A stretch of DNA of 64,000 nt from an uncultured Candidatus Peribacteria bacterium (GCA_964343715.1 CAYFJZ010000005.1:8220-72219); one strand, 5' to 3'. Positions 4,033-19,445 are shown, numbered from the stretch's first letter. Numbers and translations: made by a program. Notes: generated by a model from the letters alone, not told the origin.

Positions 4033-4072
4033 TACTGATCAATATTCATACAAAGATATTACCTACCCCATA

Positions 4073-4101
4073 ATTCATGATTCATAATTCATAATTCAAT
4101 T
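4073..4101. repeat. degenerate heptamer tandem array (ATTCATG/ATTCATA x4)
   Basis: attcatg attcata attcata attcaat, lying between the stop of 4116-4625 and the start of 2380-4032. Confidence 0.7.
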
Positions 4102-4115
4102 AAAACGACATTCCC

Positions 4116-4625
4116 CTAAAGCTTCAACGCTCTAATCCACAAATCCACCACCCCTTCCTTGTGATCCATCAACTCTTCCAGTCCCACCTGAGCAAAAACC
4201 TCTCGCAGCTGATCGGGGGTACAGTGTCCCATCTGAAGCGGAATTTTTTGATCGCCAGATTTGTCCAGCTGAAGATTGATCACACTTACCTGCTGCATTT
4301 CATCCCACACAAACCAGTACCCAGTAAACTGTTCCCACAGCATAAAGGTCTGATCAATCTGGATGCCTTTGGAATACACTACAATGTGGTGGGTGTCGGG
4401 CCCATGTCGATGAATGTAAAAGTACAGAGCCGCGACCAAAAAGAAGAGAGTCGCAACCACCCATTCCCCATTCCACAACGACCAAGCCGCTCCCCCAAAA
4501 ACAACCAGGCAACACATCACCATCCACAGCCACCCCCGCTGATGAGGATGATAATCATGGGCTTCCCAGGTAAAAATCCCGTTTCCGGGATTAAATCGAT
4601 TTTGTGATTCAGACTTTTGGTCCAT
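4116..4625 (-). CDS. hypothetical membrane protein (two TM helices plus small C-terminal domain)
   Basis: 169-aa ORF with ATG at 4623-4625. TM helices are WLWMVMCCLVVFGGAAWSLW and WVVATLFFLVAALYFYI. Confidence 0.6.
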   Translation of the reverse strand: MDQKSESQNRFNPGNGIFTWEAHDYHPHQRGWLWMVMCCLVVFGGAAWSLWNGEWVVATLFFLVAALYFYIHRHGPDTHHIVVYSKGIQIDQTFMLWEQFTGYWFVWDEMQQVSVINLQLDKSGDQKIPLQMGHCTPDQLREVFAQVGLEELMDHKEGVVDLWIRALKL

Positions 4626-4708
4626 TTTTACATATTAAATCTCTTGATTGTATCATATTTTTGTACAAAAAACAACCCCCATCAGGCTTACCATATCAAC
4701 GTCTAAAT

Positions 4709-4732
4709 GGACGCAAGATTTTGCGTCCCTAC
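4709..4732 (-). repeat. REP-like GTAG hairpin (GTAG-GGACGCAA...TTGCGTCC)
   Basis: The plus strand reads ggacgcaagattttgcgtcc-ctac; read on the minus strand this is GTAG followed by a palindrome. The same element occurs at 34641-34663 and 36852-36876, all in the same orientation. Confidence 0.6.
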
Positions 4733-4749
4733 GGAAAAAATATCCGCAT

Positions 4750-5319
4750 TTACCCCCGACTCAAAAAATACCGCACCAACCCCTCACTATTCATTCCCTC
4801 ATCCTTGACCGGATCCAACACCTTTCGAATCTGATCTGGCGCATAACCAAGCCCCTCAATGGCTTCTACCGCCTCCTCATAATCCGGATTTTTGGGGCCG
4901 GAAGCCGCATCAATCGCCGAAAGATCAATCTTTCCCCGCAACTCAACGATTAACCGTTCTGCCTTTTTCTTTCCCAACCCCGGAATCTGGGTCAAAAAAG
5001 CCACATCGCCTTCTTCTACCGCCTTCAAAAATGCATCCACCGGCACACTAACCATCGCCAAGCCCATTTTGGGGCCCACCCCCGAAATACCGATCAATTT
5101 CTGAAACAAAATCTTCTCTTCCTTCCCTCCAAAACCGTACAGAGAAATATCATTTTCCCGCACAATCATAAGCACTTCGGCTTCTATCACCTCGCCCTGT
5201 TTTACGCTTGCCAAAAGGCTTCCAGCCGGAATAACACTATACCCCACTCCTCCCGAAGTCATCACCAATATCTCTTTTTCCGAAAAATGCTGCACCGTGC
5301 CCTGAAGGTATCCAATCAT
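4750..5319 (-). CDS. ruvA: Holliday junction branch-migration complex subunit RuvA
   Basis: MIGYLQGTV...GGVGYSV N-terminal OB domain, HhH region (LIGISGVGPKMGLAM, IPGLGKKKAERL) and a C-terminal domain III-like tail. ATG at 5317-5319. Confidence 0.85.
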   Translation of the reverse strand: MIGYLQGTVQHFSEKEILVMTSGGVGYSVIPAGSLLASVKQGEVIEAEVLMIVRENDISLYGFGGKEEKILFQKLIGISGVGPKMGLAMVSVPVDAFLKAVEEGDVAFLTQIPGLGKKKAERLIVELRGKIDLSAIDAASGPKNPDYEEAVEAIEGLGYAPDQIRKVLDPVKDEGMNSEGLVRYFLSRG

Positions 5320-5364
5320 AAGCACATACTATCATATTTCCCCAAATTGGTACGGAAATAATTA

Positions 5365-7353
5365 TTAAGAAGAAGGGAAAAGGCGATCATACACCCTTTT
5401 CAAATCATTTACATTGCGCACACCGTTCATCTGGGTCATCAATTTAGAATAAAACCTTACTTTGTTGGCCACCATCCTATCCAGTTCATCATCTCCCTCA
5501 TATTGAGGATTATAACGCTTCAAATAAGCCTCCCTTTGGGCCATCAACTCAAAATAGGCTTTATTATCAATGATTATATTCATCAAACCTTTTAAGTTTT
5601 CAGGATTTTCAATCTTGAGCTCAAAATAATGACGCAAAACCTCAAAATCCACTGCTTCCAAAAAACATCTTGATCCTTTTTCCACACAAGTTCTTAATCG
5701 TACAAGAATCCGATTTAGAACCGGTTTTTTGGATAGTTCAAAAGCTTCATTTTCCTCATTGATCACCTCAAAAATTTTTGCAATTACCTGAGAATTACAA
5801 TACCCAAAAGCATAACAATATTGATACAAATCTAACAAATAAGATTCTTCATAACCATGACCCCACTCAGAAACCGACACATCAAAAATCTTTTCTTCTC
5901 TCCATTCGAGCATAATATCTACAGGAACAAAATATCCCTTATGCGCCCGGGCCAAATCAGTCCCCAACAAAGGCACCAAATAGGCCGCATCCGCTTCTAC
6001 TTTTGAAGATATAGCCTTAAAACGAGCCATTTCCTTCAGCTTCGCTTCATGAACAGAAGCCGGTGAATTCGGTGATAAGATGTAAGAAATTCGATTTTCT
6101 CCCGCCCCCCCTCGTTCATAATAAGCCTTCAAATACCACTCCATTCCCTGCCCCATCAAATCAAGATCTTCCTGAGACAATATTCTCTTTCCCTCGCCCT
6201 TCTTCCCCACCATATCATTATCCTTTTTCTTATTTACAACATCTCGTCCCCAAGTAAGTCGAGGTCTTGGCAATCCCAGCAACCAATCCAAATACAATTC
6301 CTTTTCGGGCAAAGCCAAATTTTCAATATCCCCAAAGAGAGTCACTGATTCATAATTTCCAGCAATTCCATCTGCCTCCAAAACCTGCATCAAACGCTCC
6401 CAATAGGCCTTTTTTTTCGTCGGATTAGGTCCCGTATTCGCCAAACGAGGGACTTTTTTGCCCCCAAATCGCTCCTGGTAATAAGCCACTTTTGCCCGGA
6501 CTTCTGCAATCACAAATTCCAAAGGAACCGCTTTTGGTCTCAGAGGATCAGTAGTACAAAAATCACACCCTCTTCCACATTTTGGAGACACCGAAAAGTG
6601 AAGATTCCAGCTATCGGGGTCAATACCGGTACTAAAAGTAGCCACAACAGGAATTTCCCTCCCTACATGCAAATCTTTCGCTACTACCGAATCCTGAGAA
6701 GGAAAAATCACATTCTCAGGAGGGTTCGAGGCTCGAAATCGTCCGACTTCATCACGAAATGTCGTTTCTTTCCCCTGCGCCAAAGATACCATATAATCCA
6801 CCGCCTCATCTCCCCCCCCCAAACCAATCACATCAACCATCCCTTTCTGAAAAACCCGGTTAACCGCTCCCTCATCGGGTCTTCGAAAAAGAGAACCTCC
6901 CACCCAAGTCACCACCCAAGGAGACTTAGCACGAGCATACTCAATCAGGGGATAAGTAATAATATGATCAATCTTATGTCCCCAGAGCGTAAATCCTAAA
7001 AACAAAAATCTTCTTGCCTGATCCGCTTGTTCAACCGCTTCATCAATACAACGCCTATACAAATCCAATATATTTTCTTCCTCTGTGGAAAGCTGAACCA
7101 AAGAATCAATCCCCTTAAGAGTTCTACTAGGGTCAAGGGTTCGAACTCTTTCATTCAAAAGGTTTGAAACCAGATCAGAAGAAAAACCAAATTTTTGCCC
7201 ATTTTTATCGGTAAATCGATAAGAGAAGTCAAAAAAATGAATCAACCCTTCTCTCCGAGAATGATCAAAAAGCTCAACAACTCTATCAGTAATTCGCTCC
7301 ATCAAAAAAACGAATACCAAAACAACCAAATATGTCAACACACCCTCTTCCAA
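5365..7353 (-). CDS. large radical SAM domain protein of unknown function
   Basis: 662-aa ORF with a CxxxCxxC cluster (CGRGCDFC). It has an N-terminal hydrophobic segment and a Rossmann-like stretch (VIGLGGGDEAVDYMVSL) that may be B12-binding-like. Substrate unknown. Confidence 0.6.
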   Translation of the reverse strand: MEEGVLTYLVVLVFVFLMERITDRVVELFDHSRREGLIHFFDFSYRFTDKNGQKFGFSSDLVSNLLNERVRTLDPSRTLKGIDSLVQLSTEEENILDLYRRCIDEAVEQADQARRFLFLGFTLWGHKIDHIITYPLIEYARAKSPWVVTWVGGSLFRRPDEGAVNRVFQKGMVDVIGLGGGDEAVDYMVSLAQGKETTFRDEVGRFRASNPPENVIFPSQDSVVAKDLHVGREIPVVATFSTGIDPDSWNLHFSVSPKCGRGCDFCTTDPLRPKAVPLEFVIAEVRAKVAYYQERFGGKKVPRLANTGPNPTKKKAYWERLMQVLEADGIAGNYESVTLFGDIENLALPEKELYLDWLLGLPRPRLTWGRDVVNKKKDNDMVGKKGEGKRILSQEDLDLMGQGMEWYLKAYYERGGAGENRISYILSPNSPASVHEAKLKEMARFKAISSKVEADAAYLVPLLGTDLARAHKGYFVPVDIMLEWREEKIFDVSVSEWGHGYEESYLLDLYQYCYAFGYCNSQVIAKIFEVINEENEAFELSKKPVLNRILVRLRTCVEKGSRCFLEAVDFEVLRHYFELKIENPENLKGLMNIIIDNKAYFELMAQREAYLKRYNPQYEGDDELDRMVANKVRFYSKLMTQMNGVRNVNDLKRVYDRLFPSS

Positions 7354-7395: not shown

Positions 7396-9597
7396 CTACT
7401 CTCGTACCGTATTCACCGTCAACGTACTAATACGACTATAAAAATTTTTCGTCGCATACATTTTGATCTTAATCAGCATCACATCCCCTCGTTCCCATTC
7501 GGTCGTCGGATCCAGGGTAAAATCATCTACCTGCCACATATTTGATTGAAGTCCAAGTCCCGTTCCCAAAAGCTGATCTACTCCCGTTACGCCTCCTTTT
7601 TCGACTGTAATATCCAATTTGGCATCGGTATCTACCCCATCAGACTGGTACATCAACGAAATCGCCGGATCCTGAAAACTCATAAAATCTTGCCCCACAA
7701 TATAGCGCTTGATCACATCATAGCTCTGAATATCGGTCTTCCAGGTCTCCCATCGCACCACATTCTGCTCTACACCCCAATAGTCCTCAATTTCTTCATA
7801 CATGTTTCCCACATTGTCTGTCCCATCAGCTTCAAAAATCGAATTAGGATAAATAGGACTAAAAATCTCAGAATTAGGACGATTTCCAATCGCCACTCCA
7901 TTAATCGTCCCCACCAACGTTCCTGAAACCGTCAAATCTCCTTCTATGTCCAGAGCATCATTCAGAGTAAAACGATCCAAGGCCCCATCCCACGAAAGCA
8001 CCTTCCCCAAGACTCGCCCAAAGATCAAAGACAACACATCCGAATCCGTAGCCTCCCCCGCAGAATCCAATACAAATTCCGTCTGGTCCGTTCCTCCAGG
8101 AATAACCGTTTCTGGGAGGGTTCCTTCTGGATCTCGTACATAAGGAATTTGTCCGATTTCAAATCCCGTATCCATATGATCCAAACGATCAGAATCAAAA
8201 GCATAAGGGACAGGTCGGAACGTAATACGATCAACTTCATCACTGTTAAAATCAGAGTCCAACATCTGAAAATCAGTCAACGGAGATCCAATTCGTCGAA
8301 CTTCAACCTGCATATAAACAATCCCGGTCTCAAAAATCCGAGGATCAAGCCCTCCTCCAGAACCAATCAACAAAGAAAAATCTCCTCTTTCGTCCAAAAC
8401 CGTACTCTGAGTTTCATTCCATCCTAAGTAAGCCGTACTATATTCATTTAGCTGTCCATCAGGCATTAAGTCTGAAAAATCGAAATCCGCCGAATTCCAA
8501 AAGCTAAAACGAAAGATAAATCCTCCCGTCTCAGGTTCGCCCGCATCATTCATGAGAGTCCCCTCATAAATTAATTCATTGGTCATAGTATCAGCCGCCT
8601 GAGCTGTTCCTCCCATAAGAGGGAGCATCAACAATACAAAAGCCGAAAACCAGTGTTTAGCTCCTCTAATTTTTCGATTGATCCAATCTAGAGCCGAACG
8701 AAAAGAAGCAAAATTAAGCCCTATAAAGTAGAGCTGGGCACCAACCACAACCAAAAGCAGCCACAAAGAAGCTCTAATTTTTCCTGAAGTATCAGAAAGG
8801 GTGGCCATCATATGTACTTTTTCTTTTATTTTTCCATCCACAGTACTACAGAGTCCCAGTATCGTTCCCTCTGCATCACTTCCCAACGCCACATTAACCC
8901 CCTGTGAAAAGTCATCGTATGTACTGTATCCAGCAATTATTTTCCCTAATTCACGTAGTTTTTCAAGGAATTCATGATGCTGATTTTGCAGATCTTTGTA
9001 TTCGGCAAGCTTTCTCGCAGAACCATGCATAGTCGCCTCAAGTACATTTTCATATTCATCACTAAATTCGCTGGTCCTATAAATCAATTCATTGTTTACC
9101 ACCGTATATCGTTTGTCATCCTCCAAAGCCTCAATACTACTCCCACTTCCTGCAGAAGATTGTGGAGCTTCTACAACCTTATATCGATAAAAACCATCGG
9201 GAACAGTCGACTCAAAAGGGTATACCGGGGGGGTATAAACTGTTTTCGGAGCACTTGGATAGTATCCACCCCCTCCAGTGCCACTTCCCCCACCTTCGGT
9301 TCCACCGCCACCCCCTTCAGTGCCACCTCCCCCTCCTCCGGTTCCACCACCACCCCCTTCAGTGCCGCCTCCCCCTCCTCCGGTTCCACCGCCACCCCCT
9401 CCAGTAGTGCTAACCACATACTCATCAAGCGAAGTATGATGATGCACTTTTGAAATCAATCGAAAATTCTCAGAGATCGAAATCTTCTGATCTCCTCCAT
9501 AAACTCGAGTCCGAGCTTTGACCATGTACGCCTCCACCGATGTGAAGATCACACCCGTGACAATGCATACAATTCCAATGATTTTTCGAGCCATCAA
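7396..9597 (-). CDS. membrane-anchored/secreted surface protein with Gly-rich repeat; member of the local surface-protein family
   Basis: 733-aa ORF with an N-terminal TM/signal (IIGIVCIVTGVIFTSVEA). It shares the L.FG...L.WD...RF.LN module and a C-terminal domain (YPNSIFEADGTDNVGN...) with 11496-12947 and 13678-15129. Confidence 0.65.
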   Translation of the reverse strand: MMARKIIGIVCIVTGVIFTSVEAYMVKARTRVYGGDQKISISENFRLISKVHHHTSLDEYVVSTTGGGGGGTGGGGGGTEGGGGGTGGGGGGTEGGGGGTEGGGSGTGGGGYYPSAPKTVYTPPVYPFESTVPDGFYRYKVVEAPQSSAGSGSSIEALEDDKRYTVVNNELIYRTSEFSDEYENVLEATMHGSARKLAEYKDLQNQHHEFLEKLRELGKIIAGYSTYDDFSQGVNVALGSDAEGTILGLCSTVDGKIKEKVHMMATLSDTSGKIRASLWLLLVVVGAQLYFIGLNFASFRSALDWINRKIRGAKHWFSAFVLLMLPLMGGTAQAADTMTNELIYEGTLMNDAGEPETGGFIFRFSFWNSADFDFSDLMPDGQLNEYSTAYLGWNETQSTVLDERGDFSLLIGSGGGLDPRIFETGIVYMQVEVRRIGSPLTDFQMLDSDFNSDEVDRITFRPVPYAFDSDRLDHMDTGFEIGQIPYVRDPEGTLPETVIPGGTDQTEFVLDSAGEATDSDVLSLIFGRVLGKVLSWDGALDRFTLNDALDIEGDLTVSGTLVGTINGVAIGNRPNSEIFSPIYPNSIFEADGTDNVGNMYEEIEDYWGVEQNVVRWETWKTDIQSYDVIKRYIVGQDFMSFQDPAISLMYQSDGVDTDAKLDITVEKGGVTGVDQLLGTGLGLQSNMWQVDDFTLDPTTEWERGDVMLIKIKMYATKNFYSRISTLTVNTVRE
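9259..9408 (-). repeat. in-frame Gly-rich tandem repeat (GGGGGT/GGGGGGTE units)
   Basis: Encodes TTGGGGGGTGGGGGGTEGGGGGTGGGGGGTEGGGGGTEGGGSGTGGGG inside 7396-9597. Confidence 0.8.
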
Positions 9598-9781
9598 GTG
9601 ATTTTATCACACCCGAATCAAAAAATCAAATAAAATACTTTGATAGAAAGAGATATCTCAAATTAAGAACTATTACTTTATACAATAAACGATCAATTTC
9701 AGCATTTTAATCGTGTTCAAATATATTGCACGTGTTCTAATTTTGACTACATTTAAACAGAATTATTTTCGGAACAAAAGC

Positions 9782-11236
9782 ATGAAAAAAACAGTACTAA
9801 CCGCCGCACTTTTGCCGCTTGTGACTGGCCTTCAGAGCTCGAAAGCGTTTTCAGACGTGGTCATGACCGACAAGCTCTATCTAGGCCTTTCTTACATGGC
9901 TGAAAAAGGGATTATCGGAGGCTATGACGACGGAACATTTAACACCGAAGGAACCCTCAATCGAGCGGCCGCTATAAAAATAATTCTAACCGCTGCAGAA
10001 GTAGAAATCGAAGATCCTACCGAAGAAATTTTTCCCGATGTACCTCTCGACGCCTGGTTTGCCGGATACGTAAATCAAGCTCAAAAGCTTGGTATCGCCA
10101 AGGGAGATGAGGATACTGGAGAATTTTTTCCCGATCGAGAAGTTAATCGAGCAGAATTTTTGAAGATAATGCTTACTACTTTTGGTATAGATCCAACCAA
10201 ATTTAAACTCGAAGATCTTCCCAACGACGTTCCGGACGAAACGTGGTTTACCCCCTACATTCAATTTGCGATCAAATTTAAACTCATGGATCTAGATGGA
10301 AAAGGAAATGCCTATCCTTCACATGCTGTAACTCGAGGAGAAGCGGCCGATATACTCTATCGAACCATCAAAACCGGAAAAGCCCTCAAGCCTCAAATAC
10401 TACTCAAACTTTCTGAAGACCATCTAGTAAAAACTATTGAACTCCTAGAAGCAAACCTCCTCCCAGGAGCAGGAATTGCCGTAAATATGGCCCAGAGATA
10501 CATCGACGAATCAATAAAGATTGTCCCGGACAACGAAATTATCCAGAGCGCCGACAAAACCGTACGCGCGGTTAAAAATCTTGTTGGAGCCTATACCGCC
10601 GGTGAGCACGGAAGAATCGAGGACGTACTCAAAGCTACGGGAAAAGCCTGGAACCTGGCAAACGAAGCCGGACAGCTCAACCCTTCACAATCGGTAATGA
10701 CCGAAGCCATCAAAAACCTGGCTCATGAGCTAGCCAAGAAAACGCGCTCTGTAAAAGGTGAACTGGCCGATTTCAAGGCCAATCCAGAAGCCGCTTCCTC
10801 AGAACAGAAACCAGAAGCGCCCAAAAAAGAAGTAGCTATTCCCTCAGCAGAACCTGAAGAAGAAATTGAAGAAGCTGAAGAGGTAGAAGAAGCTGAAATA
10901 GAAACTCCAGCAGAAGAAACCGAAGAAGATCTAGAAGCTCGAATTCGAGCCGAAGTAGAAGCCCGAATGAAAGCTGAAATCGCAAAGAAGAAAAAAGCCG
11001 AAGCCGATGCCAAGAAAAAAGCGGCCAAAGAAGCCGCCGCCAAAAAAGCAAAAGCCGAAGCGGAAGCCAAAAAGAAAGCAGAAGAAGAAATGAGAAAGAA
11101 GATCGAAGCCGAAGAAGCGGCCAAAGCTAAAGCCGAGGCCGAAAAGGAAGAACCCGCAGAAGAAGGACCAACAAAAGAAGAACTTATGGCTCAGCTGAAA
11201 GCGCTGCAGGCCATCCTCTCCCAAATGGAAAAATAA
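9782..11236 (+). CDS. SLH-domain (S-layer homology) cell-surface protein with Lys/Ala/Glu-rich coiled-coil tail
   Basis: ATG at 9782 gives a signal peptide MKKTVLTAALLPLVTGLQSSKAFS. Three SLH-like repeats follow (FSDV...YMAEKGIIGGYDDGTF; FPDVPLDAWFAGYVNQAQKLGIAKGD; DVPDETWFTPYIQFA). The C-terminus is a KKAEAEAKKKAEEE low-complexity tail. Confidence 0.75.
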   Translation: MKKTVLTAALLPLVTGLQSSKAFSDVVMTDKLYLGLSYMAEKGIIGGYDDGTFNTEGTLNRAAAIKIILTAAEVEIEDPTEEIFPDVPLDAWFAGYVNQAQKLGIAKGDEDTGEFFPDREVNRAEFLKIMLTTFGIDPTKFKLEDLPNDVPDETWFTPYIQFAIKFKLMDLDGKGNAYPSHAVTRGEAADILYRTIKTGKALKPQILLKLSEDHLVKTIELLEANLLPGAGIAVNMAQRYIDESIKIVPDNEIIQSADKTVRAVKNLVGAYTAGEHGRIEDVLKATGKAWNLANEAGQLNPSQSVMTEAIKNLAHELAKKTRSVKGELADFKANPEAASSEQKPEAPKKEVAIPSAEPEEEIEEAEEVEEAEIETPAEETEEDLEARIRAEVEARMKAEIAKKKKAEADAKKKAAKEAAAKKAKAEAEAKKKAEEEMRKKIEAEEAAKAKAEAEKEEPAEEGPTKEELMAQLKALQAILSQMEK

Positions 11237-11265
11237 AAAGAAATTCTAATAAATAAAACAAAGCG

Positions 11266-11301
11266 GAAAAAGACCGAACCTCCAGGTTCGGTCTTTTTCT
11301 T
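11266..11301 (+). terminator. rho-independent terminator (bidirectional shape)
   Basis: aaaa-agaccgaacc-tcca-ggttcggtct-ttttctt: a perfect 10-bp stem with flanking A and T runs, about 30 nt after the SLH gene stop. Confidence 0.8.
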
Positions 11302-11428
11302 ATGAATCATAAACACCATTCACCTCCCTACTCCCTTATTACCTACCTCTCAGATACAATCTCATCCCAAAACTCACAAGCTCACAAAATCCCAAGTTCA
11401 TAAGTTGATAGAGTTTGTTCCCAAGTTC

Positions 11429-11460
11429 AAAAAAAAGCTCTACCCCCGAAGGGGCAGAGC
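11429..11460 (-). terminator. rho-independent terminator of paralog 1
   Basis: The minus strand reads GCUCUGCCCC-UUCG-GGGGUAGAGC followed by U8. It lies 36 nt downstream of the stop at 11496. Confidence 0.8.
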
Positions 11461-11495
11461 TTTCCGTTAACTGGCACGTCAACTTTTTAGGAGAT

Positions 11496-12947
11496 CTATT
11501 TGGTCAAATAGTTGAACTTAATTTCTCCGATATAAACGGCATTCTGGTTGTCATGAACATTCCCAGTCCATTCTGATTTTGAAGTCATAGTAAACTTCAT
11601 CGTCAAGAATTCTCCAGTAGTCCAATCTCCATCATCTTCCGTTGCAAAAACTAGTCCGTAATCATCTTCCCAGGTTCCAGCAACAGTACTAACCAAGTCA
11701 TCTTCAGATGTTCCCGTTACATCAACCGTAGTCCCAGCAGTATCTTGAACTAAGATATCTAACTGACTGTAATCGGTATCAGTGTTGTCTGTGTTGTAAT
11801 CAACAGAAATTTCTTCATCACAGGCCAAGTCTCCAACCCCATTTGTTGGCTGACAAAAGCCCAGGAATCCATCTGGAATTGGCCACTGAACTACCACCGT
11901 ATAGTCTTGAGCATTCTGAGATCCTCGTCCCTTCATAGTCGACCACTTGTAGTAGTTTCGACCAGAAGTTGGGTTATGATCAGCTTCAAGAGTTCCAATG
12001 TTGTCTGATCCATCTCCGTATAGAGTAAAGTTTGGATATTCAGGGGTAAGAACCGCCGTCTCTAGTCGAGTCTGCAAGTCATCAAGCGTAATAGAGTTAT
12101 CGGCTAATTCAAAAGCCCCTACTCCACCTTCCGCAATCTGAACTTCGTCTCCAATAACCGTCAAACTAGATCCATCTACATTCACATTCAGGTTTCCGCT
12201 TGCATCCTGAACCAATCCTTCTCCAGCCACAGCCGGATCAAGCATCACTCCAGTAACACTATTGTCCTGATTGGTCACCCACTGGTAAGTACCAGGAGTG
12301 TCATCACTCTCAGTACAGAACAAGAGGTTTCCATTGGTCGTGTTGTAGTACATTCGTCCGAGAGAATCCGCATCACAAGGAGGCGCTCCATCAAGAACTA
12401 CCGCATCAGCTGCTAAAGCCGTTACCAAGTCTTTATCAAGAGTGATATCCAAAAGGTTTGCGGCAATCGCTTTTATCTGATACTGCTCATCAGCTCCACC
12501 TGTTCCTCCAGGAAGAGTAATAAAATCACCTACAGCCAATCCATGAGTCGTTCCAGAAAGAGTTACATCTGGAGTCCCCGCAGATCCTGTAGCTGTTTCG
12601 GTCAGAGTGGTACCATCAGCATGATTTTCTACCAAGAAATTCATGAGTTGTTTTCCACTCATATCCAAATCCTGGCTAAAGATAAATTTATCCAGAATTT
12701 TGTCGTAACGCAAGAAAGCATCTTCAAGCGAAGCTGATGACCCGAACTGCAAGTCAATCAGATCGACTGAAGAGTCGTCGTTGTCCAAGGAATAGGTGTC
12801 TGCGTTAACACCATCTCCTTCGGTTGTAAAAATCAGGCGCGCATCTACCGCTCCCGGAAGAGAGAGGGATAGAAACATCCCTAAGGTAAGCCCGACTCCC
12901 AACACCCGTTTGGGTAATGCCCTGTTTTTGTTGGAAGCATGTTTCAT
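11496..12947 (-). CDS. secreted surface protein, paralog 1 (fibre/adhesin-like, unknown family)
   Basis: 483-aa ORF with a signal peptide (LGVGLTLGMFLSLSLPGAVDA). About 80% identical by eye, and identical in length, to 13678-15129. Its N-terminal module is shared with 15663-19445. Confidence 0.8.
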   Translation of the reverse strand: MKHASNKNRALPKRVLGVGLTLGMFLSLSLPGAVDARLIFTTEGDGVNADTYSLDNDDSSVDLIDLQFGSSASLEDAFLRYDKILDKFIFSQDLDMSGKQLMNFLVENHADGTTLTETATGSAGTPDVTLSGTTHGLAVGDFITLPGGTGGADEQYQIKAIAANLLDITLDKDLVTALAADAVVLDGAPPCDADSLGRMYYNTTNGNLLFCTESDDTPGTYQWVTNQDNSVTGVMLDPAVAGEGLVQDASGNLNVNVDGSSLTVIGDEVQIAEGGVGAFELADNSITLDDLQTRLETAVLTPEYPNFTLYGDGSDNIGTLEADHNPTSGRNYYKWSTMKGRGSQNAQDYTVVVQWPIPDGFLGFCQPTNGVGDLACDEEISVDYNTDNTDTDYSQLDILVQDTAGTTVDVTGTSEDDLVSTVAGTWEDDYGLVFATEDDGDWTTGEFLTMKFTMTSKSEWTGNVHDNQNAVYIGEIKFNYLTK

Positions 12948-13616
12948 GAGAACAAAGGGTTAAAAAATAAATAATAAATAAATTTCACACATTTCTCCGC
13001 CGTCGGTAAGAAGTTACAAAACTCACAAACTTTGGAGATCCCATAATCAATTTATTTTCCTTCTCTTTCAACTCATGAAGGTTGAACAAAACCTCAAAAG
13101 AAGGTGCAAAAAAAGTGAACGGACAATGAGATATTGCCCCCTTAAAAACCTCAAATTGCTCACAAAACACATAAGTTATTCGAGGAAAATATATATCTAT
13201 AAGTATTGCGAAAAAAACTGATAGTTATAAAGAAATATTTGTATAAATAATGCATACTCACCATATCTCATGATCAAATATTTTATTCACAAATAAAGCC
13301 TCTCTTCGCTCCCAAAAAATCATCCACAATTATTGCCTCAATAAGAACAAAATTATGAAACAACATTTCACATTAAAAGATAAAAATATTTTATCAAGAA
13401 TAAGCATTTTAAACAGCTACCAACAAGGAATATCTTAATTTTTCAATTCTTATAGATTTTTTACTCTTTCCAGGATCAATCCCCCTCCCCTATTCTACAA
13501 AAAAACTTCTCCCTCATCTTACTTCTTACTTCTTACTTCTTAGATACAATCCCATTCCCAAACTCACAAGTTCAAAAGATCCCAAGTTCATAAGTTGATA
13601 CCGTTTGGTCACAATT

Positions 13617-13645
13617 AAAAAAAAGCTCCACCCAAAGGGGCAGAG
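13617..13645 (-). terminator. rho-independent terminator of paralog 2
   Basis: The minus strand reads GCUCUGCCC-CUUU-GGGUGGAGC (two G-U pairs) followed by U7. It is homologous in position to 11429-11460. Confidence 0.65.
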
Positions 13646-13677
13646 CTTTTTCTATAATGGCACTTCAATCCAGTGTG

Positions 13678-15129
13678 TTACTTCGTCAGGTAGTTGAACT
13701 TAATTTCACCCACCTTTACCGGATTCTGATTATCGTGGATATTTCCACTCCAGTCAGATTTTGAAGTCAGGTTGAGCTTAATAGTCAAGAACTCACCCGT
13801 CGTCCAATCTCCGTCATCTTCGGTCGCAAATTCAAGCGCATAATCGTCTTCCCAATCTCCACCGACCGTACTGACCATAACATCTTCGGTTGATCCAACC
13901 ATATCAACAGTCGTACCAGCCGTATCTTCGACTAACAGGTCAATTCTGCTCAGGTTTCCATCTGTACTTTCGGTTGCATAATCAACCGTCATTTCAGATG
14001 TACAAGCCAGATCTCCTACACCACTTGTTGGCTGACAGAATCCCTGGAATCCATCTGGAATTGGCCACTGAACCACAATCGTGTAATCCTGAGCGGTTTC
14101 ACTTCCTCGTCCCTTCATAGTCGACCACTGATAAAAGTTTCGACCAGAAGTTGGGTCATGATCTGCCTCTAGAGTTCCAATATTATTCGATCCATCTCCA
14201 TAAAGCGTAAAGTTTGGATATTCTGGAGTTAGAACCGCCGTTTCCAGTCGGGTCTGAAGATCATCCTGAGTAATAGAGTTATCAGCCAATTCGTAGGCTC
14301 CTACTCCACCTTCAGCAATCTGAACCTCATCTCCTGCAATAGTCAAACTCGTTCCGTCTACATTCACATCCAGGTTTCCGTTAGCATCCTGAACCAAACC
14401 TTCTCCAGCTACGGCCGGATCTAGCATGACTCCCGTTACACTGTTATCCTGGTTGGTGACCCACTGATAAGTCCCGGGACTATCTGCACTATCAGTACAG
14501 AACAAGAGATTCCCATTGGTCGTATTGTAGTACATTCGACCCAAAGAGTCGGCATTACAGGGAGGAGCCCCATCTACAATCACCGCCGCTCCAGAAAGTG
14601 GTACTTCCAAAGCCTGGTCAATCTCTATAATCAACCCCGTTCCATCAATAGCTTTAATCTGGTACATCTCAAGTTCATGAGCAGGACCTCCCGGAAGCGT
14701 AATAAAATCTCCCACAGATAGTCCATGGCCAGTACCATCTAAAGTTATCGAAGTGGCTCCAAGCAATCCCGTTGCGGTCTCGCTCAGAGTCGTTCCATCG
14801 GCATGATTTTCCACCAAGAAATTAAGAATCTGCTTTCCGCTCATATCCAAGTCCTGGCTAAAGATAAACTTATCCAGAATCTTGTCATAACGTAAGAAAG
14901 CATCCTCAGTCGAAGCGGCACTCCCAAAAGAGAGATTAACCATATCCACGGATGAGTCGTCATTGTCCAAAGAATAGGTGTCAGCATTAACACCATCTCC
15001 TTCGGTCGTAAAAATCAAACGCGCATCTGCAGCCCCCGGCAAAGCCAGAGACATACACATACCCAGAGTCAATCCGACTCCCAACGCCCTCTGGGATAAT
15101 GCCCTACTTCTGTTGGAAGTGTGTTTCAT
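13678..15129 (-). CDS. secreted surface protein, paralog 2
   Basis: 483-aa ORF, a tandem duplicate of 11496-12947 that includes the 3' flank and an upstream motif about 155 nt before the ATG. Confidence 0.8.
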   Translation of the reverse strand: MKHTSNRSRALSQRALGVGLTLGMCMSLALPGAADARLIFTTEGDGVNADTYSLDNDDSSVDMVNLSFGSAASTEDAFLRYDKILDKFIFSQDLDMSGKQILNFLVENHADGTTLSETATGLLGATSITLDGTGHGLSVGDFITLPGGPAHELEMYQIKAIDGTGLIIEIDQALEVPLSGAAVIVDGAPPCNADSLGRMYYNTTNGNLLFCTDSADSPGTYQWVTNQDNSVTGVMLDPAVAGEGLVQDANGNLDVNVDGTSLTIAGDEVQIAEGGVGAYELADNSITQDDLQTRLETAVLTPEYPNFTLYGDGSNNIGTLEADHDPTSGRNFYQWSTMKGRGSETAQDYTIVVQWPIPDGFQGFCQPTSGVGDLACTSEMTVDYATESTDGNLSRIDLLVEDTAGTTVDMVGSTEDVMVSTVGGDWEDDYALEFATEDDGDWTTGEFLTIKLNLTSKSDWSGNIHDNQNPVKVGEIKFNYLTK

Positions 15130-15662
15130 GAGAAAGGGGGTTAAACAGTAATTAAAGAAATTTGTAACTTTTTCTTTTCCACAAGACCGAAGTATTATTT
15201 GCCCTTTCGGACCCGTGGAGTCTGAATCATCGGGTAACCCGATCCAAGAAGCAAGAAATAGGAATTGCCCAAAGATCCAAAAAGAGGTGCAAAAAATTTG
15301 AACATAATTCGAAAAATGTGTTCACCACCCAGGGGAAAAAATCACCCAAATAACAAATTTTGTTATCAATCAAAATAATACTTTTTAGTCCTTTCCAAAA
15401 GCACAAAAACATCTCATAAAGATAATTGCATGTGGCATTGTTGAATAAAAAAACTGGATCAATCCCAGAAGAAAAATAAAAACAAAAACAACTGATCAAA
15501 ATAATTACTCAAAAAACAAAACTGTATCAAAATAATATTCAAGCAAAAACACAACGCAAAATATCCTTCTCCCTCCCCTTTGGGTCAATTTTTTAAAAAA
15601 ATGGCCCCCGCCCAAACCTTGTAAAACCATTCAAAACAGGTAAAAATACAGGGCTATTAAAA

Positions 15663-18600
15663 ATGTATATAAAAAGCTTTAATATAAATCTAAAAAAAAT
15701 TACCAGCCTCCTCCTTGGAGTGGCCGGAATTTTGTGCACAGCCTCAACCGAAGCCCGGCTGGTTTTTCCAACGCTTGAAAACGCCACCAACGCCGACAAC
15801 TACATCCTCGACAACGATGATTCAGCCAGTGAATACATCGATTTAGAATTCGGATCCTCTCTGAGTTCGCGGTTTCGATACGATAAATTAAGTGACAACT
15901 TCAACGTAAATAAAAATCTCGATCTCTCTGGAAACGAGCTTACTTCCTTCCGGGTTGAAAACGTTGATTCAGTTGCCGAAGGAGGACGCCCCACCTGTAC
16001 AGAAGCCCTTCAGGGAAGGGTCTACTACGACTCCAACGACGACAATGCCTATATATGTATCGAAGTCACCTCTGGTTTTTGGGGCTGGTACGACTTCACC
16101 ACCTCGATCTCAAATTTCTCCGCTCGATTAATGACGGTTGGAACAGGTGGAGATTTCCCCAATATCGCCCAAGCCGCCTCATATCTAAATTCACTCAACG
16201 GAGGAATCATCTTTCTTACCCCCGAAACACATACCGTAGACTCAACAGTAGATCTAGAAATGATCAACATCATTGGTTCCAACACCTACGAAAGTATCAT
16301 TAATCTCACGGGAGCCGGACTCATGCAAGCGCAAGAAACTCAATTCAAATCACTCACCATCGAAATTGACAGCGGCATTACATCGGCTTACGGAATAGAT
16401 CTCAAAAGCAATCTCACCTCCAGCTCAATCGTTTTTGAATGGGTAAACTTTAACATTGGCGGCACCAAGATATTACTCGACACCTCCGCCGCTTCTCCCC
16501 CCGAACTTCGAACCCGATTTGTGCATACTTCTGCGACCTCCAACGGGGGTGGAATCGTAAACACCAAAACCAGTTCCAATCTTCTGGCCAGCTCAATATT
16601 TTTTGTTGCCTCTCAGGGGGTAAATACCGGAGGACTCGAATTTCACGACTGGGATGTACAGGTAGCCGGAGACGCAAATGTGCTAACCACCGGAACGATC
16701 AACACCATTCCCAATGACACGATCTACGTTTATCCCGGAATGGACATCGAAGGGGCTTCCAACAGTCTCCCAAACGGAGGCATCTTAACTCTTCTTCCCG
16801 GAACACACGAAATATCCGCCCCCATAAACATCACCAACAACAGCATTGAAATCGTGGGATATGGAGATGCCTCCATCATCCGAGCTTCAGGATTTGCCAG
16901 CACCGGAAGTACCATTGCCGCCATACACATGGGAGCCGAAGACGGAACCGCTCCCGTAAACGATGTCGTACTCAAAGACTTCAAAATTGAAGTCGATGGG
17001 CCCAACATCCACGGAGTTCGAGCTGCCGGAGGAGAAGACCTTCAAATCTACAACGTCACCATCCAGAAAATTTCTGGACAAGCAGGATCAGGATCAAGCG
17101 CACGAATGGGAATCCACTTTTTGGATGGAACCACCGAAATGCTCATGCGCCCCGTGATCAAAAACTGTCGTATTTTTGGAAACGAAGGTACCAATTATTT
17201 TACCGACGGAATACATGTCACGGGAGGCCCCGACTACAGCAACGCAGGTATCTGGACCAACGGCGCAGGAATCAAAAATGCCCTCGTTGACGGAAACAAC
17301 ATCGACTATGTGCGAGAAACCACGGCGGTTTTTGTGGGTGTAAACGACAGTTCTCTCTACAACAATCGACTCACTCGAATGGGAGTGGGATCAAATGGGG
17401 CTTACGGTCTATTTTTGGGAAGTTCAGAACGAACCAACATGAACACCAACGTAGTGAGCCGCTCCCTCACCTCCGACTCTTATGGATTTGTAATTGAAAA
17501 CTTCAACAACGGGTCTCTGAGAACCGTTTCTGATTGTTTAATCAACAACAACACCATCGACGGAACCAATGGGGGGGGCGGCGTAGGTTTCCAGTTTGCC
17601 TTCTTTATCGGGAACTCATCCAATACCGCTGTTCATCGAAATATCTTTCAGAACAACATCATCAAAGGCGCCTCAAATATAACCACCAACGCCTTTGACA
17701 TCAACGGGAACTTCGATGACAACGTAATCTCAAACAATTCCATCTACGGAGGCATTACTGATCCCTGGGATGTCGGAGTCGACATCGGATCTAGTGCAGC
17801 CGAAAGAAATGCCGTGCGAAACAATCAGTTTATCAATGTCACCACCCCCATTACCGATGGAGGAACCAACACCACCTTTGGAACCTTTTATCACAATTCG
17901 AACACTGACCCGACAGTGAACGACGACAACACCGATGGTTTTTATATCGGAACCATCTGGATCAACACCAGCACCGAAGAAGCCTTCATCAGTCTGGATG
18001 ACAGCACCGGAGGAGCCAACTGGGATCCAATCTCCGGAGGCGCAAGTGGCGGAATTACAAACGTCATAGAAGACACCTCCCCCGAACTGGGCGGCAACCT
18101 CGACACCAACAATTATGAGATCATATCAGGCAGCGGAGAAGACATCACTCTTGATCCCGGGACAGGCGGTAATGTGTCACTCTACGCCAATGTAGATGTT
18201 GCCGGTAATACATTTGTCCTCGATTCAAATGATTCTGGGGGCGACATCACCCTTCAGTTCGGAGCCACACTGGGCAATTACCTCCGCTGGTCAGATGTAG
18301 ACTCAAAATTTGTCCTCAATGCTCCACTAGAAGTACAAGGCGACGTGGAAGTCGTCGGACAAGCCTCTATCGCCAACAATCACACCGCCACCGACAGCGA
18401 TGGGACCATCAACCTCGGACGAGAAGGGGGCACCTGGGAAACAGTCGGGTACGATAACGTCGACAACGAAGTCGAAGTCTCGACCAACACCGAAGTCCAG
18501 GGATACCTCGATGTCTTCGGCAACAACATCATAATAGACGCCGACAACTCAGGAGGCGACGTAGCGGTTCAATTCGGTCAAGCCGCCAACAAAACCCTCA

Positions 18601-19445
18601 CCTGGAACGACGCCAACAGTCGGTTCGAATTCAACGATTCGGTTCGAATCAACGGAAACAATGCAATAGAAGGCATCACCTACATTGCCACCGACCAAGA
18701 AGCCACAGCCAGCGACGGCGTACTTTCTTTGGGAAGAAGTGCCGGAGCCTGGGAAACCCTGATCTACAACACTGCCACGGGCCAATTTGAACTGAGTGAC
18801 GATCTCCAAATATTAGGGGCTCTTGATGTAAACAATGTTGACCTCAATCTCAATCAGCTCATCGCCACCCGAGTAGAAAATCTCTCGGCAGCACCCAACT
18901 GCAACGCCGCCTCAACCGGGCGAATCTACTTCAACACCTCAGATCAAAAAACCTACATCTGTAACGGAAGTGCCTGGGTTGACCTTTCTGCCTCTGGAGG
19001 TGGTAGTGGAAGTTCTACCATCGTCGCCCAATACTACGACAGTTCCGGAGGACTCAACATCAACACCACCAGTTCCACCGCCATCCCCTGGAATACCGAA
19101 ACCCGTGAAGACACCGGATTTACCCATACTGGGTCAAGTGCCCTCGTCTATATAGACAATCCAGGGTGGTACGAGATTTCCTATTCCATCGCCTACGACA
19201 CCACAGCAAGCAGTCGAAGAAATATTCTGTGTCAGATAGAACTCAATGGCTCCACTTTGGTCCCCTCCAGATCTTACTCCTACGCCCGAAACAGCACAGA
19301 CGACAAAGGAAGCAACCATGCTAGTTTAATTCTGCAAACCACAACCTCCAACGAATACTACGAAGTTACCTGCCAACAAGAAGGGACCTCAGGAAGTAAT
19401 TCAACCATTCCCAATGAATCCTGGACGGTGATTAAGTCGTTGTAA
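15663..19445 (+). CDS. giant secreted parallel beta-helix / fibre-like surface protein
   Basis: 1260-aa ORF with a signal peptide. Its N-terminal module is homologous to the 483-aa paralogs (LDNDDSASEYIDLEFG...RVENV...C..GRVYYD...YIC). It has PbH1-like beta-helix repeats (NNTIDG..., NNIIKG..., NNSIYGG), three copies of the D.NDSGGD...FG module, a second VEN...C...GRIYFNT...YIC motif and a jelly-roll-like C-terminus. Confidence 0.8.
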   Translation: MYIKSFNINLKKITSLLLGVAGILCTASTEARLVFPTLENATNADNYILDNDDSASEYIDLEFGSSLSSRFRYDKLSDNFNVNKNLDLSGNELTSFRVENVDSVAEGGRPTCTEALQGRVYYDSNDDNAYICIEVTSGFWGWYDFTTSISNFSARLMTVGTGGDFPNIAQAASYLNSLNGGIIFLTPETHTVDSTVDLEMINIIGSNTYESIINLTGAGLMQAQETQFKSLTIEIDSGITSAYGIDLKSNLTSSSIVFEWVNFNIGGTKILLDTSAASPPELRTRFVHTSATSNGGGIVNTKTSSNLLASSIFFVASQGVNTGGLEFHDWDVQVAGDANVLTTGTINTIPNDTIYVYPGMDIEGASNSLPNGGILTLLPGTHEISAPINITNNSIEIVGYGDASIIRASGFASTGSTIAAIHMGAEDGTAPVNDVVLKDFKIEVDGPNIHGVRAAGGEDLQIYNVTIQKISGQAGSGSSARMGIHFLDGTTEMLMRPVIKNCRIFGNEGTNYFTDGIHVTGGPDYSNAGIWTNGAGIKNALVDGNNIDYVRETTAVFVGVNDSSLYNNRLTRMGVGSNGAYGLFLGSSERTNMNTNVVSRSLTSDSYGFVIENFNNGSLRTVSDCLINNNTIDGTNGGGGVGFQFAFFIGNSSNTAVHRNIFQNNIIKGASNITTNAFDINGNFDDNVISNNSIYGGITDPWDVGVDIGSSAAERNAVRNNQFINVTTPITDGGTNTTFGTFYHNSNTDPTVNDDNTDGFYIGTIWINTSTEEAFISLDDSTGGANWDPISGGASGGITNVIEDTSPELGGNLDTNNYEIISGSGEDITLDPGTGGNVSLYANVDVAGNTFVLDSNDSGGDITLQFGATLGNYLRWSDVDSKFVLNAPLEVQGDVEVVGQASIANNHTATDSDGTINLGREGGTWETVGYDNVDNEVEVSTNTEVQGYLDVFGNNIIIDADNSGGDVAVQFGQAANKTLTWNDANSRFEFNDSVRINGNNAIEGITYIATDQEATASDGVLSLGRSAGAWETLIYNTATGQFELSDDLQILGALDVNNVDLNLNQLIATRVENLSAAPNCNAASTGRIYFNTSDQKTYICNGSAWVDLSASGGGSGSSTIVAQYYDSSGGLNINTTSSTAIPWNTETREDTGFTHTGSSALVYIDNPGWYEISYSIAYDTTASSRRNILCQIELNGSTLVPSRSYSYARNSTDDKGSNHASLILQTTTSNEYYEVTCQQEGTSGSNSTIPNESWTVIKSL

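Follow-up and report, generated by a model that had tools for sequence, protein, structure and literature searches.

How ultrasmall bacteria of the candidate phyla radiation (CPR, or Patescibacteria) recognize and hold their hosts is, to our knowledge, little known if the type IV pili of Saccharibacteria are left aside. This question is raised by a 12-kb locus of an uncultured Candidatus Peribacteria bacterium, located in a stretch of 64,000 nucleotides (GCA_964343715.1, CAYFJZ010000005.1:8220-72219; C5:8220-72219 in the genome designated G000), which is referred to below as the window. The initial annotation of the window placed five open reading frames (ORFs) in this locus, all of which are present:

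7396-9597, minus strand: protein A, 733 aa
9713-11236, plus strand: S-layer homology (SLH) protein, 507 aa
11496-12947, minus strand: protein B1, 483 aa
13678-15129, minus strand: protein B2, 483 aa
15663-19445, plus strand: protein C, 1260 aa

The locus probably encodes a cell-surface system of mosaic adhesive fibers, which would be docked on the envelope and would probably be trimeric. The suggestion of the initial annotation that it is the host-attachment surface of an episymbiont is plausible. The evidence comes from the homology of the proteins, their export signals, the predicted folds and the conservation of the locus in related genomes.

Proteins A, B1, B2 and C share a module of ~45 residues. 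A hidden Markov model (HMM) of this module, built from 20 copies and run on the 11,173 six-frame ORFs (at least 60 aa) of the whole genome, matches six proteins only, among them A, B1, B2, C and a protein encoded outside the window at C4:26565-27335 (full E-values of 3e-62 to 2e-15); no other match is found below E=1. A regular expression and the HMM agree on the distribution noticed at first, with one copy in A (residues 502-559), one at the N-terminus of each paralog (residues 46-104 in B1 and B2) and three strong copies in C (residues 41-96, 845-898 and 950-1004), and add a degenerate fourth copy in C (residues 1016-1057). By BLASTP, residues 33-108 of B1 are 50% identical to residues 28-100 of C (E=6e-18) and B1 also matches residues 846-893 and 958-1103 of C, while the module of A is 40% identical to residues 851-899 of C (E=3e-6). 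The C-terminal domain proposed to be common to A and the paralogs is likewise recovered, with 27% identity over 175 aa between the C-termini of A and B1 (residues 294-464, E=3e-11). By sequence, the shared segments are thus true homologs within a module-sharing family and not compositional. The reading that they arise from chance or low complexity in unrelated proteins has the shortness of the motifs in its favor and nothing else; the BLASTP values, the specificity of the HMM in the genome and the 845 clusters found among 1.84 billion proteins (see below) refute it.

The second shared element is a cysteine hairpin, C...GR[MVI]Y[YF]...C (motif 2), which occupies residues 191-211 in B1 and B2, and residues 112-132 and 1080-1100 in C. 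Its occurrence in the paralogs and twice in C stands as described initially, but the motif as written, running from VEN into the hairpin, is contiguous in C only, since in B1 and B2 an inserted domain of ~85 aa (residues 109-188) separates VEN (residues 105-107) from the hairpin. A third copy in C, lacking the cysteines (residues ~755-790), is plausible by eye; it is undetected by the motif HMM at an independent E-value (iE) below 1 and is not claimed here.

The sixth module protein (G000:C4:26565-27335, minus strand) contains ~244 aa, and its head is 60% identical to that of a 304-aa ortholog in the metagenome-assembled genome (MAG) L004. On a further contig, two tandem paralogous ORFs (G000:C7:1257-3284 and 3288-5642) encode a hairpin similar to motif 2 (TNCDTNNEGSLRFNSTGNTMEFCNGLTWNK; HMM iE ~3e-3) and may, on this similarity, represent a remoter offshoot of this toolkit.

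In B1, B2 and C, the cleavage site of the signal peptide (A-x-A) lies immediately before the sequence RL[IV]F (as in A/RLIFTTE, the slash marking the cut), and this N-terminal signal region is the only hydrophobic region of these proteins. Directly behind the cleavage site follows a unit of ~100 aa composed of the module, a neck and the two-cysteine hairpin. Neither these three proteins nor the sixth one has a membrane, sortase or SLH anchor of its own, and neither SLH nor any other wall-anchor family is found among the Pfam matches of B1, B2, C and 72 further module proteins. S-layer lattice proteins usually carry an SLH or other wall anchor of their own; B1, B2 and C contain no SLH domain.

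There is no model for the module or the N-terminal unit in Pfam or NCBIfam. An exhaustive HMMER search of 1.84 billion representative proteins with a profile of the unit (module and Cys hairpin) gives 845 clusters at E<=1e-3, of which 298 reach E<=1e-10, and no source, including the names of the representative matches, provides a functional name for the family. Among the best 143 module proteins, 136 begin with a signal-peptide-like region, the first module starts at a median position of residue 41 and the number of copies ranges from one to six. Approximately 23 of them end in a BclA_C-like head and ~20 in a B-type jelly roll, and the β-helix core of C is present in six. The smallest members, P0013 and P0014 (~300 aa), consist of signal peptide, module, Cys hairpin and head, and nothing more. 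The Pfam partners in the 72 other module proteins are BclA_C (seven proteins), Collagen (three) and Peptidase_S74 (two), as well as Laminin_G_3, F5/8 type C, fn3, CBM_5_12, BppL_N and SO2946-like_C. The collagen, S74 chaperone and BclA_C partners are hallmarks of trimeric fibers, and the remaining ones are lectin-like tips. One Peribacteria MAG contains a module fused to a COLFI (E 1.8e-17)/fibrinogen-C-like domain (L005:3665-4909), head types otherwise typical of animals. Outside the class to which the window belongs, the N-terminal unit gives one weak match among ~280 other genomes of the phylum.

Scans of the whole A, B and C proteins against Pfam, NCBIfam and PHROG give nothing except one PHROG match to C; scans with single domain segments alone are informative. 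This largest protein is divided into the following segments:

15756-16082, plus strand: N-terminal unit, with module 1 (residues 32-100, HMM iE 2e-21) and Cys hairpin 1 (residues 101-140, motif-2 iE 4e-14)
16083-18062, plus strand: β-helix core (residues 141-800), predicted by AlphaFold2 (AF2) and Foldseek
18195-18833, plus strand: internal module array (residues 845-898, 950-1004 and the degenerate 1016-1057; HMM iE 2e-17, 3e-17 and 1e-3)
18858-18992, plus strand: Cys hairpin 2 (residues 1066-1110, motif-2 HMM iE 3e-16; N-terminus of phrog_8309, E 8e-10)
19005-19442, plus strand: BclA_C/C1q-like head (residues 1115-1260), with a sub-threshold match to Pfam BclA_C

The AF2 model of residues 97-800, calculated with 24 homologs, is a right-handed parallel β-helix with a predicted local distance difference test score (pLDDT) of 87 and a predicted template modeling score (pTM) of 0.73. 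All of its 126 matches in the Protein Data Bank (PDB) at E<=1e-3 (Foldseek) are β-helix proteins. The best are PfbA, the fucoidan lyase FdlA and the tailspikes of CBA120, Sf6, P22 and Det7, and further matches include the K1 capsule lyase, alginate lyases of polysaccharide lyase family 6 (PL6) and the AlgE4 epimerase. The helix, initially called PbH1-type, is therefore correct as a fold but not as membership of a sequence family, because residues 141-800 have no match in Pfam at E<=1, the β-helix and PbH1 families included. Homologs of the core, 43-57% identical, are present in 35 CPR proteins with lengths of 783-2064 aa. Core proteins follow one of two layouts: either the signal peptide is followed by the module, the core and a variable tail, which in ~8 proteins is a BclA_C-like head, or an ‘INFQGK’-type N-terminus, the same domain that opens the ectodomain of A, takes the module's place and the Cys hairpin is located just before the core.

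These matches bring in the alternative that the proteins are cell-bound enzymes for degrading glycans or foraging on them, where the core would be a lyase or hydrolase and the jelly-roll and BclA_C-like domains would serve as carbohydrate-binding modules (CBMs). The system would then feed on or remodel the cell's own wall polymer or a host capsule, and adhesion would not be its main role. The resemblance of the core to the fucoidan lyase, the K1 capsule lyase, PL6, AlgE4 and depolymerizing tailspikes points this way, as does the alginate-binding CBM among the best fold matches of the B C-terminus, and the invariant charged residues of the core keep this explanation alive, at least for C. However, the top fold match, PfbA, is a non-enzymatic adhesin, no Pfam or CAZy-type family is matched, the invariant residues are not mapped to a known active site, and B1, B2, A and the C4 protein do not contain the helix core. 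An enzymatic role for the system is rated as rather improbable.

The C-terminal domain of C had been compared with a C1q/TNF-type jelly roll. BclA_C is a C1q/TNF-like trimer, and residues 1101-1260 of C match this family with E=1.2e-5 and 25.6 bits, which is under the gathering cut-off of 38. Seven of nine heads homologous to that of C also match BclA_C (best E 1.7e-7), and a precomputed match to PF18573 exists for two homologs, P0013 and P0015, so that the comparison is supported, at a sub-threshold level. The head also resembles, at 30% identity, an internal segment of a protein of the Salinibacter phage M8CRM-1 that comprises 2762 aa. Searches of C and of the head profile against PDB sequences yield no significant match. 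In genome G199 each half of C has a gene of its own, one encoding 789 aa with module and core (51% identity) and the other 447 aa with module and head (46% identity). This indicates that C of the window is a composite, in which a small complete fiber, without its signal peptide, has been fused behind a core fiber.

B1 and B2 are 78% identical without gaps, share the same domain order and are the product of a tandem duplication of a 2182-nt unit, which includes a terminator hairpin. The segments and the conserved elements downstream are:

12840-12947, minus strand: signal peptide of B1
12624-12839, minus strand: module of B1
12384-12623, minus strand: insert of B1
12273-12383, minus strand: Cys hairpin of B1
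12063-12272, minus strand: fiber repeats of B1
11499-12062, minus strand: jelly-roll domain of B1
11431-11482 and 13617-13668: copies of the terminator hairpin
11335-11434 and 13525-13624: 100-nt block downstream of the two copies, 82% identical

The most divergent region of the pair is the insert (59% identity). A codon comparison gives dN/dS of 0.11, with 0.06-0.17 in every segment, and a saturated dS of ~1.4, from which it follows that the duplication is old and not recent. The hypervariability envisaged initially finds no support in this comparison of the paralogs.

In the AF2 model of B1 (monomer, 12 sequences) the C-terminal domain (residues 294-483) forms a confident β-sandwich with pLDDT of 75-92, and the insert has pLDDT of 65-85. 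According to this model the C-terminal domain of A and the B proteins is a jelly-roll β-sandwich. Foldseek comparison with the PDB gives generic jelly-roll matches at E ~1e-3, with weak resemblance to CBMs, an alginate-binding one being among the best, to the ligand-binding domain of EphA2 and to FlaA1, a spirochaete flagellar sheath protein. Many phage tail proteins are found in BFVD, but with TM-scores of 0.1-0.24, which are treated as weak. No significant match to PDB sequences is obtained with the B-family profile or with P0010. The B type is rare, with 12 proteins among 5.8 billion.

Protein A differs from the fibers in being anchored in the membrane. It contains hydrophobic segments at residues 1-19 and 276-294 and a weaker, signal-like one at residues 315-336. 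In A and its orthologs of 704-995 aa (L004, L005, G182 and G002) an N-terminal hydrophobic segment is followed by a low-complexity exposed region, a transmembrane hairpin (residues 276-294 and ~315-336) and an ectodomain, which in some genomes is a standalone protein led by a signal peptide. The features of A are:

9265-9405, minus strand: GGGGGT[E/G] heptads of the exposed region (residues 65-111), seven 21-nt tandem repeats
8098-8586, minus strand: N-terminal domain of the ectodomain (residues 338-500; ‘ELIYEG...’, INYQG-type), homologs at E 1e-19 to 1e-26
7921-8094, minus strand: module (residues 502-559), HMM iE 9e-17
7399-7881, minus strand: jelly-roll C-terminal domain (residues 573-733), common to B1 and B2

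The heptad tract is likely to be prone to slippage and variable in length. The domain that opens the ectodomain is homologous in A-type proteins of five other genomes, and the ectodomain shows no significant match to PDB sequences. Homologs of the ectodomain with 3-17 in-frame TGA codons occur at G310:C31:48935-50260, G332:C12:15213-15851 and G332:C4:52045-52662, which indicates that the locus is also present in TGA-recoded lineages of the class, where ORF calls with table 11 would miss it.

The SLH protein was correctly identified as such, its three repeats matching Pfam SLH (PF00395) with E=1.1e-23 and 83.3 bits (cut-off 20.8). Its true start is probably Met24 (position 9782), where the signal peptide begins, the annotated GTG start lying 23 codons too early. 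Behind the signal peptide are located:

~9848-10402, plus strand: SLH repeats
10403-10747, plus strand: helical domain
10748-11233, plus strand: E/K/A-rich tail

The SLH proteins of the window, L004, L005, G199, G127, G182 and G287 can be aligned in their C-terminal helical domains (~120 aa). The E/K/A-rich tail comprises 160 aa, contains internal DNA repeats (10981-11161) and is missing from the orthologs of 331-359 aa.

An A-type protein with the ectodomain N-terminal domain, module and jelly roll, module fibers of the B type or others, and an SLH-helical protein, of 331-359 aa outside the window, stand side by side in all eight genomes inspected, namely that of the window, the NCBI MAGs L004 and L005 and the species genomes G199, G127, G182, G287 and G002. 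The MAGs of relatives with the same proteins are named ‘Candidatus Peribacteria’, ‘Candidatus Gracilibacteria’, ‘Candidatus Altimarinota’ or ‘Patescibacteria group’. Among 121 genomes of the class, the SLH-helical domain is present in 47, 36 of them with the module, one further genome has the module only, 11 the SLH-helical domain only and 73 neither (Fisher 7e-20); the ectodomain of A is present in 41, 35 with the module and six without it, two genomes have the module only and 78 neither (Fisher 8e-22), both p values ignoring phylogenetic relatedness. All three components are found in 35 of the 121. Within the window's own family, eight genomes possess both the module and the SLH-helical protein and four lack both, so that the co-occurrence does not merely reflect membership of a clade. 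In the 28 genomes where the SLH-helical and module genes lie on one contig, they are separated by a median of 2.5 kb, by at most 5 kb in 22 and by at most 24 kb in all.

The close linkage to an SLH protein is also what would be expected if the locus served envelope architecture, that is, if the B-type jelly rolls and A were part of an S-layer or wall lattice tethered by the SLH-helical protein, with a structural function and no ligand on a foreign cell. The many SLH proteins encoded in these genomes, the S-layer genes reported for Peribacteria (PMC4736985), the purifying selection on B1 and B2 and the weak fold match of the B C-terminus to a flagellar sheath protein are all in line with such a lattice. 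On the other hand, the swappable lectin- or C1q-like heads, the tailspike-like helices and the fusions with collagen and S74 are typical of adhesive fibers and not of lattices, and the lack of these proteins in one third of the window's family would be odd for a core layer of the envelope. A purely structural lattice is regarded as unlikely. A gene matching PS_pyruv_trans (G000:C1:313623-314390; 35.4 bits, cut-off 25.3) is compatible with binding of the SLH repeats to a pyruvylated wall polymer, the matched family being broader than CsaB and found also in nine of 14 control genomes.

The module tree provides a further hint at docking. It is based on 35 copies and 56 alignment columns and is indicative rather than conclusive. 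In this tree the N-terminal modules of different fiber types group by genome, with C of the window joining B1/B2 (support 92/75), and the 447- and 789-aa proteins of G199 (96/88), the 411- and 440-aa proteins of G127 (98/87) and the 766- and 485-aa proteins of G002 (96/99) forming pairs; the clustering by genome exceeds that in all 200 label shuffles. The internal module of A groups with its orthologs (94/90) and not by genome.

A relationship to phage fibers is limited to certain parts. In viral contigs, the N-terminal unit is represented by its second half (neck and motif 2), at 19 loci, and the first half, the ~45-aa module, is not found there. The phage version occupies the extreme N-terminus (~55 aa) of proteins of 280-500 aa, with the consensus MARKFL..DL.KNEL.N..IQNL..AP..P..GQMYYDT....L..Y.GT.W; it has neither cysteines nor a signal peptide, and the motif begins at Met1. 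The counterparts are labeled ‘head decoration’, ‘virion structural protein’, ‘tail fiber’ or ‘tail collar fiber’ in PHROGs, and the neck and motif 2 match phrog_8309, 38707 and 16122, consistent with the matches of C and of P0013/P0014. Four PHROGs labeled ‘tail fiber protein’ (9017, 22179, 27998 and 7760; best E=1.8e-10) are matched by the head of the 304-aa L004 protein, which is orthologous to the C4 protein. It thus appears from sequence that building blocks are shared with phage fibers and that the shared N-terminal element would, by its position, be virion-proximal in phages. The resemblance to phage tail fibers or adhesins, noted from the outset, is upheld by the tailspike-like core, the BclA_C-like head, the neck homologous to phage fibers and the fusions with collagen, S74 and lectin domains.

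Could the locus then be a remnant of a prophage or tailocin? The sequence links to fiber, decoration and tail-fiber PHROGs, the predominance of tail proteins among the BFVD fold matches of B1 and the kinship of the C head to part of the giant Salinibacter phage protein would agree with such an origin. Yet the proteins carry Sec signal peptides, whereas in the phage counterparts the motif stands right at Met1. The neighboring genes have housekeeping functions and encode glutamate kinase (AA_kinase), FemAB, RuvA, VanW and an SLT transglycosylase in the window and RuvB, PNPase, S15, YidC and RNase P in relatives. No virion genes (capsid, terminase or tail) are present around the locus, which is conserved in synteny beside housekeeping genes in 35 genomes of the class. 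A phage or prophage locus is rejected on these grounds, and derivation from a tail-fiber remnant, largely refuted, is very improbable.

Two observations concern the genomic setting. The genome of the window (1.87 Mb, completeness 97.8%, contamination 0.39%) is nearly twice the size of most family members (0.9-1.3 Mb), although its completeness and contamination look normal. Next to the locus, at 5365-7353 on the minus strand, a 662-aa ORF contains a CX3CX2C motif (CGRGCDFC) typical of radical-SAM enzymes and has no match in Pfam or NCBIfam at E<=0.1.

In the adhesive-fiber model favored here, B1, B2, C and the sixth protein would be exported by the Sec pathway, and the ~100-aa N-terminal unit would form the cell-proximal end, by which the fibers, probably as trimers, dock on the envelope. 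A shaft made of fiber repeats, additional modules or the tailspike-like β-helix would extend from this unit and end in a distal head of one of three types: jelly-roll sandwich, BclA_C/C1q-like or resembling a tail-fiber tip. There are two candidate docking partners. One is the membrane-anchored A, which displays the same module and jelly roll; the other is the SLH protein, whose repeats might bind the wall polymer and leave the helical domain free for protein binding. The heads and the β-helix would bind glycans on the surface of other cells and perhaps cleave them, and new specificities might arise when heads are swapped onto the resident N-terminal unit, as the composite C and the clustering by genome would suggest. 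It is tentatively proposed, as a possibility rather than an expectation, that the N-terminal unit is an unrecognized CPR-specific envelope-docking domain, which stems partly from the end by which phage fibers attach to the virion and which plugs swappable receptor-binding fibers into a dedicated base of A and the SLH-helical protein. Such a system would be a cellular counterpart of the phage baseplate and its receptor-binding proteins and might set the host range of episymbionts of the Peribacteria or Gracilibacteria type.

Several results weigh against this picture, besides the relatedness ignored by the co-occurrence p values and the small size of the module tree. The codon comparison of B1 and B2 reveals no positive or diversifying selection, unlike many host-range determinants. 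The module and the fiber repeats have pLDDT below 50 in the AF2 monomer of B1, a low confidence for their predicted fold. The SLH gene is convergent with the B genes and not co-transcribed with them, and the 11 genomes in which the SLH-helical protein occurs without a detectable module suggest that this protein may have a broader role. The clustering of N-terminal modules by genome can equally result, judging from the sequences, from recent head-swapping or from gene conversion without any docking partner. Finally, the β-helix core contains many invariant H, D, E, K and R residues, which together with its strong conservation is more suggestive of an enzyme than of a simple shaft or adhesin.

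Published work on Peribacteria and Absconditabacteria speaks in general terms only of ‘large extracellular proteins’ or a ‘fibrous surface’ (PMC4736985, PMC8080830, PMC13059738), the former being noted in Peribacteria as possibly serving attachment (PMC4736985) and the latter in Vampirococcus (PMC8080830). The fiber model fits both. The locus provides a testable parts list, consisting of an unannotated N-terminal family, a set of swappable heads and two candidate docking partners. If the docking model is true, the heads would be candidate determinants of host range that can be read straight from metagenomes.

Several known systems resemble the locus in part. SLH-anchored proteins such as SpaA and SlhA of Paenibacillus alvei (PMC6081394) also have three SLH repeats, and a pyruvyl-transferase-family gene is likewise present in the genome studied here; however, the SLH repeats here carry only the ~120-aa helical domain, on a polypeptide separate from the fibers. 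PfbA of Streptococcus pneumoniae (PDB codes 4mr0 and 3zpp), the top structural match of the C core, is a surface β-helix of a monoderm bacterium, but the identity is 12-14%, the TM-score is ~0.3-0.45, and PfbA is LPXTG-anchored, while C has no sortase signal. The BclA filament of the exosporium of Bacillus anthracis and B. cereus is matched through BclA_C by the heads of C and ~30 family members, and collagen repeats precede such heads in some members of the wider family. It differs in that the matches stay under the gathering cut-off, a collagen stalk is lacking in C, and the N-terminal region for attachment is another one.

Phage fibers, tailspikes and head fibers (P22, Sf6, CBA120; PHROGs 2647, 8309, 38707, 11518 and 9017) share the β-helix fold and the logic of tip-swapping, the neck and motif 2 are homologous to their virion-proximal ~55 aa, and the head of the sixth member's ortholog matches tail-fiber tip families. 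Unlike them, the proteins described here belong to a cell, are exported by the Sec pathway and are encoded on the chromosome in surroundings free of virion genes; the ~45-aa module is not found in viral contigs, and the bacterial motif 2 has a pair of cysteines, which the phage version does not.

The precedent for the same logic is provided by the mosaic adhesive trimer (MAT) fibers of Bdellovibrio bacteriovorus, which lives on other bacterial cells (Caulton et al. 2024, PMC10769870). In both cases there is a multigene repertoire of exported fiber proteins with phage-like β-helical shafts, predicted ones in the present case, and swappable C-terminal tips, with S74 and non-S74 members. Both also have a conserved β-rich N-terminal domain that follows the signal peptide immediately in all paralogs and is presumed to keep the fiber on the cell, a likeness by analogy of architecture. 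Within the wider family here there are members with S74, with collagen and with BclA_C; S74 is present in none of the proteins of the window. Bdellovibrio is a Gram-negative predator, whereas the present locus belongs to a monoderm-type CPR bacterium, whose putative fibers are encoded together with an SLH protein and a membrane-anchored relative and feature a prominent single-chain tailspike-like core and BclA_C-like heads. The mosaic-fiber solution used by phages and Bdellovibrio would thus recur, in a third form, in a lineage of monoderm symbionts.

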